A stretch of DNA of 64,000 nt, taken from Escherichia coli. GTDB taxonomy: Bacteria; Pseudomonadota; Gammaproteobacteria; Enterobacterales; Enterobacteriaceae. Made by a program: the position numbers and the translations under genes. The stretch lies in the NCBI RefSeq assembly GCF_022846255.1, contig NZ_AP025682.1, one strand, 5' to 3'. Positions 23,809 to 38,213 of the stretch are shown in pieces (positions within the stretch are counted from its first letter, which is position 1; each line of letters begins with the position of its first letter). The notes below the pieces were generated by a model. The model was given only the letters and a program-made list of their open reading frames with translations, was not told where the DNA came from and ran no database searches.

Positions 23809-24348
23809 ATGTCTTCCAGAGTTTTGACCCCGGACGTCGTTGGTATTGACGCCCTGGTACACGATCACCAAACCGTTCTGGCAAAAGCTGAAGGCGGTGT
23901 GGTTGCCGTATTTGCTAACAATGCCCCGGCGTTTTATGCCGTCACGCCTGCACGCCTGGCTGAACTGCTGGCGCTGGAAGAAAAGCTGGCGCGTCCGGGA
24001 AGCGATGTCGCTCTGGACGATCAACTCTATCAGGAACCGCAAGCCGCTCCCGTTGCTGTACCCATGGGGAAATTCGCCATGTATCCGGACTGGCAACCCG
24101 ATGCCGACTTTATCCGCCTGGCGGCGCTATGGGGCGTGGCGCTAAGAGAGCCGGTGACCACCGAAGAACTGGCCTCATTCATTGCCTACTGGCAGGCGGA
24201 AGGTAAAGTCTTTCACCATGTGCAGTGGCAACAAAAACTGGCGCGCAGCCTGCAAATCGGCCGTGCCAGCAACGGCGGACTGCCGAAACGAGATGTGAAT
24301 ACGGTCAGTGAACCTGACAGCCAAATTCCACCAGGATTCAGAGGGTAA
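23809..24348 (+). CDS. dnaT: Primosomal protein DnaT
   Basis: ORF track 23797..24348; start at [15 protein letters not shown]; 179 aa. Confidence 0.93.
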
Positions 24349-33928: not shown

Positions 33929-34402
33929 ATGCGTCTTTTTGGCAAAGTGGCAGAATTTAGTGCTGCCTTTGCGCTATTCGTTCTGGTTGTGGTGACAATT
34001 GGAGCGGTATTTATGCGTTATTTCATCGGCCAACCGCTTCAATGGACAGAAGAAATGTCGGGAATGCTGATGATTTGGGTGGTGATGTTAGGTGGAGTGG
34101 TGGCGGAACGTGACAGGGCGCACCTGACCATTCCCTTCCTGATGGAGATGCTTCCAGGCAAACTCAGGCGTGTTATTGCAGTACTGGTCGCCCTTCTCTC
34201 CATCGCACTGCTGCTTTATATGGCCTGGCTGGGCTACCGACTAGCCGAAATGGCGCAGTTTAAAGTGACACAAATTCTGAAGGTTTCCTGGTTCTGGATC
34301 GATCTGGCGGTCCCTGTCGGCGCACTGGCAACGGCTATTTATACCCTCTACTGGTTAATAAACGATACAAAACAATCCGATAGCGGAGACAAAATGCAAT
34401 GA
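33929..34402 (+). CDS. TRAP transporter small permease (DctQ family)
   Basis: 157-aa, 4-TM ORF; overlaps the next gene by 4 nt. Confidence 0.8.
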   Translation: MRLFGKVAEFSAAFALFVLVVVTIGAVFMRYFIGQPLQWTEEMSGMLMIWVVMLGGVVAERDRAHLTIPFLMEMLPGKLRRVIAVLVALLSIALLLYMAWLGYRLAEMAQFKVTQILKVSWFWIDLAVPVGALATAIYTLYWLINDTKQSDSGDKMQ

Positions 34403-35670
34403 GTTGGTTATTGATTATTCCGCTAATGATCGTCTGTTTGTTTCTCAACATTCGGGTCTATCTGGCGATGTTTATTGGCATCATCGCTTACTTTTTATTC
34501 TTCTCCAGCGTACCGATTGAAATTGCCGTGCAAAGACTAATCGCGCCAACGCAAAGCCCATCATTGCTGGCCATTCCGTTTTTTATCTTGCTAGGCACAC
34601 TAATGAGCTACACCGGCATTGCCGAACGCATCCTGCACATTGCCAACGTTCTGGTGGGGAAAATGCGCGGCGGACTGGGCGTGGCAAACATTCTCGTCAG
34701 CACCATGATGGGCGGCGTCAGCGCCTCTAACCTTGCTGACGCGGCGATGCTGTCGCGCATGATGGTGCCGGAGATGGAGCGTAAAGGCTACAATCGCGCG
34801 TTTGCCGCCGCCATTACCGCTGGTGGCTCGTTAGTCACCCCGATCATACCGCCTGGAATAGCCCTGATTATTTACGGTCTGGTTGCCGACGTCTCTATCG
34901 GAAAAATGTTTATCGCCGGACTGGTACCTGGTTTGCTATGCGCAGTCGTACTGATGTTTACCGTCTACCTTGTCGCCCGCAAAACTAACGCTAAACCCTC
35001 GCGTGAAAGCTGGCCTACGGGCAAAGAGGTGGTGTTCTCGCTGGGACAGGCCTGGCCTGCGCTGTTCCTCATTTTTGCTGTGGTGGGTGGTATTCGCGCT
35101 AACATTTTCACCCCAACAGAAGCAGGTGCAGTAGCGGTGCTAATCGTGCTGGCGATTGGCTTTTTTATCTATCGTGAAATGCGGATTTCTCATGTCGTCA
35201 AAGCATTGGGCGAAACGGCACGCGCAACCGCATCGGTGATGCTGGTAATCATGGCCAGCGCCGCATTGGGATGGATTTTCTCAATGGAACATGCTGGTGT
35301 CGCAGTGGCGAATTTTGTGACTTCGCTGACCGAAAACAAATACATGTTCCTGTTGATTATCAACATATTGCTGCTGACGCTGGGGATGTTTCTGGAAGGA
35401 AACGCCATTTTGCTGATCCTGGTACCACTATTAAAACCGGTGGTCGAACACTTTGGCATCGATCCGGTGCATTTTGGCATCATCATGATCTTCAACCTGT
35501 CGATTGGCGCATTCACGCCACCGGTAGGTACCGTGATGCTGCTGGTATGTAATATCACGCAAGTTTCGGTGGGAAATTTCTTTAAACAATCCCTGCCCCT
35601 ACTGGCGGCTCTACTGTTAATGCTAATGCTGGTGACATATATCCCGGCGATTTCACTGTTCCTGGTTTAA
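34399..35670 (+). CDS. TRAP transporter large permease (DctM family)
   Basis: 423-aa polytopic membrane ORF; ATGA overlap with the DctQ-like gene. Confidence 0.8.
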   Translation: MSWLLIIPLMIVCLFLNIRVYLAMFIGIIAYFLFFSSVPIEIAVQRLIAPTQSPSLLAIPFFILLGTLMSYTGIAERILHIANVLVGKMRGGLGVANILVSTMMGGVSASNLADAAMLSRMMVPEMERKGYNRAFAAAITAGGSLVTPIIPPGIALIIYGLVADVSIGKMFIAGLVPGLLCAVVLMFTVYLVARKTNAKPSRESWPTGKEVVFSLGQAWPALFLIFAVVGGIRANIFTPTEAGAVAVLIVLAIGFFIYREMRISHVVKALGETARATASVMLVIMASAALGWIFSMEHAGVAVANFVTSLTENKYMFLLIINILLLTLGMFLEGNAILLILVPLLKPVVEHFGIDPVHFGIIMIFNLSIGAFTPPVGTVMLLVCNITQVSVGNFFKQSLPLLAALLLMLMLVTYIPAISLFLV

Positions 35671-35712: not shown

Positions 35713-37377
35713 TTAAAACGTTTCCCAGTTCTCCTCGCTATCTGCCACGGCCATTTTGCGCGGCGTAGCTGGCGTCACGGTTTTTACCACAGCCGATGCT
35801 TCACGCTGCTGTTGCTGCTGTTGCTGAATCCGGAACACTGCCACTGCTTCGGTCAGGCGACTGGCCTGCTCTTCCAGCGCGGCGGCGGCGGCGGCAGATT
35901 CTTCCACCAGCGCGGCGTTCTGTTGAGTTACCCGGTCCATCTCAGCAACCGCTAAGCCAACCTGATCGATACCACGGCTCTGCTCATCAGAAGCAGAAGC
36001 AATTTCGCCCATAATGTCCGTCACGCGGGTCACGGCACTGACAATCTCCGCCATTGTTTCCCCTGCGCTTTCGACCAGCGTAGAGCCAACATCTACTTTC
36101 CCCACCGAGTCTTCAATCAGGCTTTTAATTTCACGAGCCGCCTGAGCGCTGCGCTGGGCCAGATTACGCACTTCACCCGCGACCACCGCAAAACCGCGCC
36201 CTTGCTCACCCGCGCGCGCTGCTTCAACCGCCGCGTTCAAAGCCAGAATATTGGTCTGGAAGGCAATGCCGTCAATTACGCTGATAATATCGGCGATTTT
36301 CTGCGAACTGGTGGAGATATCGCGCATAGTCTGCACCACGTTATCTACCACTTTGCCGCCGCGTTGCGCCGTTTCAGAAGCACTTAACGCCAGGTGGCTG
36401 GCCTGGCGCGCATTTTCGGCGTTCTGCTTCACCGTTGCGGTCAGTTGCTCCATGCTGGCTGCCGTCTCTTCCAGCGAAGCGGCCTGTTGCTCGGTGCGCG
36501 AAGAGAGATCGTTATTGCCGGTAGCGATTTCGCTGGCACCGCTATAGATGGCATTGGCCCCGTTGCGCACATCACCGACGGTACGCATCAGCTCTCCCTG
36601 CATATGGCGCAAACTCTCAGCCAGTTGCCCCATCTCATTAGAGCCATCCACCTCAATCGGTTTCACCAGATCGCCGCCTGCAATATGACGAATGCTGTCA
36701 ATCAGGCGATTCATTGGCGCTACCAACGAGGCTTTAATACCGAACCAGACGGCGAAGATGACCGCCAGTACGACGATCATCACGCCCACCAGAATCCACA
36801 TCGCCTGGCTGTAGGAGGCATTGTTATCGCTGACGGCGATATCATAGAGCCGATCGTTTTGCTCCATGTAAGCCACATACTGCTTCTCGAAACCGTCCTG
36901 ATATCCCTGGGTCGGCTGATCAAAGAACTCGTTGATTTTGCCTGCACCTAACAGTTGGATCAGCTCCGCCAGCGCATTGTGATAAATATCGTAATTACGT
37001 TTGATCTCTGCCGCTGCGGCGGTGCTCTGACGCGGGTCACGCGGCAACGCTTCGTAATCCGCCCAGTTTTTTTCCGCCTGTTTCAGCGAAATACTGGCAC
37101 TCTGCATCAGCTCAGCAACGGTTGAACCGCTACCAATATTATTCTGATCCATCATGTAGCGGATACCCGCGCGGTTGAGGGTGTTACGCGTCTGCAACAA
37201 CGCGACCCAGCTGCCATTCAGCGTGGATTGCTGCTGGCGAATGGTTTGTAAAACAGTGAAATTTTCTTTGTCATTCTTTAAGGCATTAAAGAACAGACCG
37301 CCTGATGTCAGTTGTAAAAGGCCAAAAACGGCCAAAACCAGCAGTAAGCTGGTCACGATCTTGATACGTTTTAACAT
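35713..37377 (-). CDS. tsr: Methyl-accepting chemotaxis protein I (serine chemoreceptor)
   Basis: 554-aa ORF ending ...EENWETF; HAMP and MCP signalling domains; seven consecutive Gln codons in the C-terminal linker. Confidence 0.93.
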
Positions 37378-37495: not shown

Positions 37496-37942
37496 TTATT
37501 CATTATCGCCCGGAATGTCTTCTTGTCGGGAATTACCCAGAGCAATAAATTCCTCTAACAGATGGGTTAACTGTTGCATTTTCTCGGCAGTAAACTGAGC
37601 TTCAATCTGCCGATAGGCTTCTTCAATCTGTGTCTGAGCGCGGTTATACAGGGCCTGCCCCTCTTTGGTCAGCGAGATATAGAGCTTCCGCTGATCATTG
37701 ATCGGCTTTAATCGCAACACTAAACCGTCGCGTTCCATCCTCGTGAGGATCCCGGTCAGGCTTGGGCGCAAAATGCAGGCGCGATACGCCAGATCGTGAA
37801 AATCCATTGATGGGCTTTCCGCCAGAATACGCACGATGCGCCACTGTTGCTCAGTCAAATTATGCCGTTTAACGATTGGGCGAAAATAACTCATCGCCGC
37901 TTCTCGCGCCTGGAGCAACGCAATGGTTAGTGAGTCGTGCAT
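37496..37942 (-). CDS. hpaR: MarR-family repressor of the hpa meta-cleavage operon
   Basis: ORF track 37496..37996; start at MHDSLTIALLQAREAAMSYF. Confidence 0.88.
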   Translation of the reverse strand: MHDSLTIALLQAREAAMSYFRPIVKRHNLTEQQWRIVRILAESPSMDFHDLAYRACILRPSLTGILTRMERDGLVLRLKPINDQRKLYISLTKEGQALYNRAQTQIEEAYRQIEAQFTAEKMQQLTHLLEEFIALGNSRQEDIPGDNE

Positions 37943-38213
37943 TATCTTTCCCCTGAAAAATTCAAAATCATTAATATAGAAACAGTTAATCGTCACGTTA
38001 CCGGGACTGAGCTATCCCCGCAATTCCTCATTTTATCAAAATTGAGCATACTTTATTAACTTACTGATATTTAGTATTTTATTACCTGCAAATGTAAATA
38101 GTTTGTTAATTAGATCACATTTACATCACTTACTTTTGCCAAACTACGCAATCGGGAATAAAAGTAATCATTAACATATTAATGATTAAAATGATCGAAT
38201 CCGAGGAGTGGTA
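37943..38213. promoter_or_regulatory. hpaR/hpaG divergent promoter-operator region
   Basis: AT-rich interval between divergent hpaR and hpaG. Confidence 0.45.

Follow-up and report, generated by a model that had tools for sequence, protein, structure and literature searches.

In the window analysed here, a stretch of 64,000 nucleotides from Escherichia coli, the chemoreceptor gene tsr reads through seven consecutive glutamine codons close to its 3' end. The original prediction took this run, longer than that of K-12, for a triplet-repeat expansion. The locus raises the question of whether the window strain carries a derived, lengthened allele or whether the short run of K-12 is itself the departure. 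We consider it very likely that the tract is the commonest natural allele of a 9-bp tandem repeat lying in frame where the receptor's tether begins, and not an expansion.

The tsr gene of the window and its glutamine tract

Over its full length the gene matches tsr-annotated genes with 97.7–99.3% DNA identity in 5385 of 5426 complete E. coli genomes, each of which has a single copy. A Pfam search with the 554-aa protein returned TarH (residues 1–176, E 9e-55), HAMP (217–263) and MCPsignal (327–484, E 2e-62), i.e. a Tar-type four-helix ligand-binding domain followed by HAMP and an MCP signalling domain. PDB chain 6s1k_E, “Methyl-accepting chemotaxis protein I”, matches residues 1–554, and tsr of K-12 strain BW25113 is orthologous at 98.1% DNA identity over the full length. 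The protein ends in the pentapeptide NWETF, which is kept in nearly all aligned relatives and stands at the end of a linker of the roughly 30–35 residues typical of Tsr, predicted to be unstructured (33 aa here when counted from I517, the convention of PMC10561060). On these matches the window protein is identified as Tsr, a pentapeptide-bearing MCP. Features are collected in Table 1.

Table 1. Coordinates of tsr, its C-terminal elements and adjacent features in the window.
Feature	Position	Strand	Description	Basis
tsr CDS	35713..37377	minus	554 aa + stop; serine chemoreceptor / methyl-accepting chemotaxis protein I	listed ORF
NWETF pentapeptide	35716..35730	minus	residues 550-554	from translation
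C-terminal flexible linker (tether)	35731..35829	minus	residues I517-E549; 33 aa here, 30 aa in K-12	
Seven-Gln tract	35806..35826	minus	codons 518-524: CAG CAA CAG CAG CAA CAG CAG	read directly
9-bp tandem array	35805..35826	minus	CAGCAACAG x2 then CAGC	Tandem Repeats Finder
GCC/GCG run	35879-35895		in-frame triplet run, x5.7	
TRAP transporter large permease	34399-35670	plus	downstream of tsr	
hpaR and hpa genes	37496-37996	minus	upstream of tsr	

Reading the minus strand directly (gtg ttc cgg att cag caa cag cag caa cag cag cgt gaa gca tcg) and translating the 554-aa ORF confirmed that the in-frame CAG/CAA tract of seven Gln is real and that it lies at the start of the C-terminal linker before NWETF, as had been proposed. 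The range first given for it, 35803–35826, comprises the seven Gln codons and the following Arg codon (35805..35803). Glutamine makes up 7.8% of Tsr, and a run of at least seven has a chance expectation of about 1e-5. Tandem Repeats Finder reported a perfect period-9 array with the unit GCTGCTGTT on the plus strand (2.4 copies, 100% matches) and in addition a weak period-3 signal. The array can also be described as a 13-bp direct repeat, CAGCAACAGCAGC, present in two copies at a 9-bp offset. The units are perfect head-to-tail copies, CAA interrupts the Gln run so that the longest pure triplet run is (CAG)2, and the reading frame remains intact through NWETF.

A second in-frame triplet run is located nearby and encodes the Ala run SAAAAAAL. 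An Ala-rich run (SAAAAAAL or SASAAAAL) occurs in every orthologue tail printed, and its length was constant among the sampled strains.

K-12 Tsr (551 aa; WP_000919536.1, BW25113; PDB 6s1k) has the same TarH-HAMP-MCPsignal order and NWETF tail as the window protein. Its gene measures 1656 nt, exactly 9 bp fewer, and reads CAG CAA CAG CAG at the tract, so that the window protein has seven Gln where K-12 has four, and a tether of 33 aa instead of 30. The shorter run of K-12 had been stated correctly in the original prediction. Further differences of the window protein are the substitutions E92Q, H178Y and T527A (window numbering; RETS to REAS) and a change of PAAP to PATP. The neighbouring genes also differ: tsr is flanked by hpaR and a TRAP permease in the window and by btsT and lgoT in K-12. 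Upstream, hpaR and hpa genes occupy the place of btsT; downstream, the TRAP transporter large permease is shared with UTI89, LF82 and the 13-Gln strains, while lgoT is found in K-12, O157:H7, Nissle and SE11. For positions 24000–48000 of the window the best match among the 5426 complete E. coli genomes reached only 97.9% identity, and 99.3% at best for tsr. Apparently the source strain comes from a lineage that is sparse among complete genomes, or else the region is mosaic.

Structure of the tether and predicted effect of its length

CheR and CheB dock on NWETF, and the tether keeps them close to the sites of methylation (PMC7390727; PMC10561060). A relevance of linker length for the reach of the adaptation enzymes, as suggested originally, is supported by work on Tar in PMC10561060. 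With Tar tethers of 22, 29, 34 and 46 aa the peak of the CheR distribution moved linearly by 0.128 +/- 0.048 nm per residue, and an alternative fit gave 0.233 nm per residue (PMC10561060). In that study the Tsr tether has 30 aa and the Tar tether 34, a difference that the authors connect with the closer methylation sites of Tsr. Like the Tsr tether, these engineered Tar tethers are disordered and end in NWETF, and their length sets the CheR distribution. They differ in being laboratory constructs changed near the pentapeptide, whereas the variation in Tsr is natural, lies proximal to the helix and proceeds in steps of three residues. Per repeat unit the most probable position of tethered CheR would shift by about 0.4–0.7 nm, a modest distance.

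An AlphaFold2 model built on 46 relatives (mean pLDDT 78.6, pTM 0.38) shows the long cytoplasmic helix ending at residue 513, followed by a break at 514–518 and pLDDT below 50 for residues 520–554. Deposited models end at residue 516 (PDB 8c5v) or 520 (1qu7). Since the modelled helix ends ahead of the tract, confidence is low beyond it and the deposited models stop at 516–520, the Gln tract is predicted to open the disordered tether of Tsr.

The low-confidence region is not featureless in the model: DSSP assigns a short helix to residues 519–528, again at low confidence, which covers most of the Gln tract. Helices can form in poly-Gln stretches that adjoin coiled coils. The Gln run may be helical in part and not flexible throughout, and one could go further and regard it as an extension of the C-terminal methylation helix. 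A change of three residues would then move or rotate the exit point of the tether instead of altering its contour length. We think this improbable, as the assigned helix falls where pLDDT is below 50, beyond both the confident helix and the break, and where structural models stop; EPR work on Tar, as cited in PMC10561060, likewise describes an unstructured tail.

Four length alleles in E. coli

We read the tract in the window and in 19 other E. coli strains. With the one exception of LR-28, described below, the alleles consist of n units and a closing codon, (CAGCAACAG)n CAG, where n is 1, 2, 3 or 4, corresponding to 4, 7, 10 or 13 Gln and to tethers of 30, 33, 36 or 39 residues. The one-unit form was read in K-12, BL21(DE3), UTI89, strain 104 and Combat13F7; the two-unit form in the window, O157:H7 MB9-1, Nissle 1917, an ST131 isolate, AR_0013 and SE11 (NC_011415); the three-unit form in KSC64, HS, LF82, SCU-116 and Z0117EC0036; and the four-unit form in RM14723, A13 and Z1323HEC0355. 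Sampled matches spanned all 132, 141, 150 or 159 nt, so that differences comprise whole units, as expected of a VNTR. In AR_0013 the first codon of tsr (210–1874) is not ATG and translates as T, and the RefSeq CDS starts 3 nt later; this may reflect a start-codon mutation.

Reference Tsr proteins with the seven-Gln tract are thus found in O157:H7, Nissle 1917, SE11 and ST131 (554 aa; e.g. WP_000919571.1, WP_000919544.1, WP_000919567.1), the very finding that the original prediction had named as contradicting it. They share the length, tract and codons of the window protein, and their genes differ from the window gene at 23–28 scattered nucleotides elsewhere.

Allele frequencies were estimated as genome counts in BLAST identity bands rather than from per-genome alignments, which leaves an uncertainty of a few units. 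A 141-nt probe with 60-nt flanks placed about 4056 of 5342 matched genomes (≥95% identity) in the length class of the window. Synthetic length probes gave about 1110 genomes for the 4-Gln class, about 176 for the 10-Gln class and three for the 13-Gln class (RM14723, A13 and Z1323HEC0355). This corresponds to roughly 21% for n = 1, 76% for n = 2 and 3% for n = 3, with n = 4 in three genomes. The bands were distorted where BLAST split the alignment at the repeat and then rejoined the pieces at about 100% identity. The ≥95% band of the 4-Gln probe (1214 genomes) contains about 104 ten-Gln genomes for this reason and was corrected by reconciling the searches; the top rows of the 13-Gln search were two-piece joining artefacts and were discounted. 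Band totals agreed within a few genomes across the four probe searches, although rare length variants of 3 or 6 bp could hide inside them. As a check on the band counts we used the 30-mer ATT(CAGCAACAG)2CAGCGTGAA, for which alleles of other length provide no megablast seed: it occurred at 100% identity in 3800 of 5426 complete genomes, many O157:H7 among them. No allele above 13 Gln and no 1-Gln allele was present among the matches listed, and none is needed to explain the band totals.

About 250 genomes share the 7-codon length and lack the exact 30-mer (4056 vs 3800). In tsr of LR-28, the closest to that of the window, the tract is interrupted (QQQQQHQ, CAT replacing CAG) and the tail reads SGENWETF instead of SEENWETF. 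Interrupted variants of the 7-codon allele may therefore be fairly common, and they should slip less readily.

A phase-variable on/off switch was considered and rejected, because the unit is a multiple of three and all four alleles remain in frame to NWETF.

Recurrent changes in copy number

The tract was masked in 20 E. coli tsr alleles, from which a neighbour-joining tree was calculated and rooted on SCPM-O-B-8794, a divergent genome labelled E. coli whose Tsr has 95% protein identity at about 11% DNA divergence. The tree places 7 Gln at its root, and 4-Gln alleles are nested in 7-Gln backgrounds. By parsimony the length changed at least 8 times, or in 9 single-unit steps, on this tree, for which the alleles had been picked to over-represent non-modal lengths. 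In pairwise comparisons with the tract masked, UTI89 (4 Gln), AR_0013 (7 Gln) and SCU-116 (10 Gln) are only 3–4 SNPs apart over 1644 nt, while the two 4-Gln alleles of K-12 and UTI89 are separated by 28 SNPs. Combat13F7, also with 4 Gln, differs by 8 SNPs from the 7-Gln allele of Nissle and by 28 and 38 SNPs from those of K-12 and UTI89, respectively. Copy number has thus changed recurrently and independently on the 20-allele tree, as in a VNTR, although intragenic recombination could mimic some of these events.

Length changes that recur on near-identical haplotypes invite the idea that the series is kept by selection, as an in-frame locus of the contingency type that tunes adaptation kinetics according to lifestyle. 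Tether length measurably alters the CheR distribution on Tar (PMC10561060), and the longer alleles that we read came mostly from strains with B2-type neighbouring genes, e.g. LF82 and SCU-116. We nevertheless judge such selection unlikely: the match tables show no link between allele length and host or niche, each step is predicted to have a small effect (about 0.4 nm), and one allele at 76% together with a conserved outgroup length fits purifying selection with occasional slippage.

In-frame VNTRs of the MLVA type in other bacterial genes likewise consist of head-to-tail copies with recurrent changes of whole units. Compared with them the tsr array is very short, with 1–4 units of 9 bp. In the partial literature library that we searched, we found neither a publication that connects tsr with a VNTR or MLVA locus of E. 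coli nor an earlier description of the 4/7/10/13 Gln series.

Ancestral length of the tract

Relatives were taken from a scan of one genome per species. Orthologues among the matches listed came from Leclercia, Enterobacter, Citrobacter, Kluyvera, Superficieibacter, Pseudocitrobacter, Hafnia and others; E. albertii, E. fergusonii and Salmonella are absent from these matches, so that the polarity rests on more distant Enterobacteriaceae and on SCPM-O-B-8794. The spacer between F515 and NWETF measures 34 aa in the window and 31 aa in K-12. In 15 orthologues of at least 79% identity from other Enterobacteriaceae, among the matches listed, it ranges from 33 to 37 aa with a mode of 34. Across 45 aligned relatives it ranges from 33 to 44 aa, and the 31 aa of K-12 lie below all of them, again among the matches listed. 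Outgroup tails of the form QQ[DEA]QQ[KR]x-R align without gaps to QQQQQQQ-R of the window (e.g. FRI-QQAQQRQ-HEA, FRI-QQDQQKA-RAH and FRI-QQEQQKA-REF).

As judged from these alignments, the two-unit (7-Gln) form keeps the ancestral tail length. Since the outgroups share this length and the tree root is likewise placed at 7 Gln, K-12 and about a fifth of E. coli represent a one-unit contraction. The true expansions, on the same evidence, are the 10- and 13-Gln alleles.

The reading from which we started, in which the window strain has undergone a CAG/CAA triplet expansion of an ancestrally short, K-12-like run, is hard to reconcile with these data and we regard it as very improbable. It draws on the four Gln of the K-12 reference strain and on the perfect nucleotide repeat, whose two units have the same codon pattern, as a 9-bp duplication would give. 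In addition, a perfect repeat is absent from the closest outgroup tract; 6 of its 21 nt deviate from the E. coli repeat, and the perfect repeat could therefore stem from a duplication that restored length, rather than from substitutions. Against an expansion in the window strain, about 70–76% of genomes have seven Gln, such alleles occur on every major branch of the gene tree, 4-Gln alleles are nested in 7-Gln backgrounds at least three separate times, and the outgroups keep the 554-aa length, with none of the 45 relatives among the matches listed having a tether as short as that of K-12. Moreover, in all sequences read the alleles are 9 bp and never one triplet apart. Of the original interpretation, the gene, the position of the tract, the K-12 length and the relevance of the linker hold, and the triplet expansion has to be given up: the unit is 9 bp, the alleles are 4, 7, 10 and 13 Gln, and the longer state is not derived.

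A sequencing or assembly artefact, for which nothing specific speaks beyond the fact that some technologies miscall short repeats, can practically be dismissed, as the identical 30-mer occurs in 3800 independent complete genomes and the frame is intact to NWETF.

Discussion

The data are best explained by an in-frame 9-bp repeat with two units as its usual state. We propose that the 13-bp direct repeats at 9-bp offset misalign during replication or repair, by which whole 9-bp units would be lost or gained. Such changes in copy number would yield receptors with 4, 7, 10 or 13 Gln and the corresponding tethers. A one-unit allele has no 9-bp repeat left and would therefore re-expand only rarely, making it a nearly one-way state. 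Recombination could account for part of the recurrence pattern. Extrapolated from Tar, a step of three residues would displace tethered CheR by some 0.4 nm and might allow a small tuning of adaptation kinetics.

The tract of the window is in itself of little import, being the ordinary majority allele of a well-studied gene. The seven-Gln tract is already annotated, and anyone who aligns RefSeq Tsr proteins will see the polymorphism. Its meaning lies in the comparison with K-12. The 551-aa Tsr of K-12 with its 30-aa tether is a minority, contracted form present in about 21% of complete genomes, and this reference tether is unusually short. In most E. coli the Tsr tether measures 33 aa, nearly the 34 aa of Tar. 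The count of 30 aa in PMC10561060 equals that of K-12; the argument made there, relating a “shorter” Tsr tether to closer methylation sites, depends on the K-12 allele. For tests of tethered-enzyme models of adaptation, the natural 4/7/10/13 series offers ready in-frame tether-length variants.

We tentatively raise the possibility, which we regard as rather unlikely, that the 9-bp repeat acts as a natural dial of tether length, with tethers of 30, 33, 36 and 39 residues measurably altering the reach of CheR and CheB and the speed or precision of adaptation to serine, and with K-12 at an atypically short setting. If this is true, models and arguments that assume a Tsr tether of 30 aa would not hold for most E. 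coli, and K-12, the base of almost all quantitative models of chemotaxis, would have a tether below that of any relative sampled.
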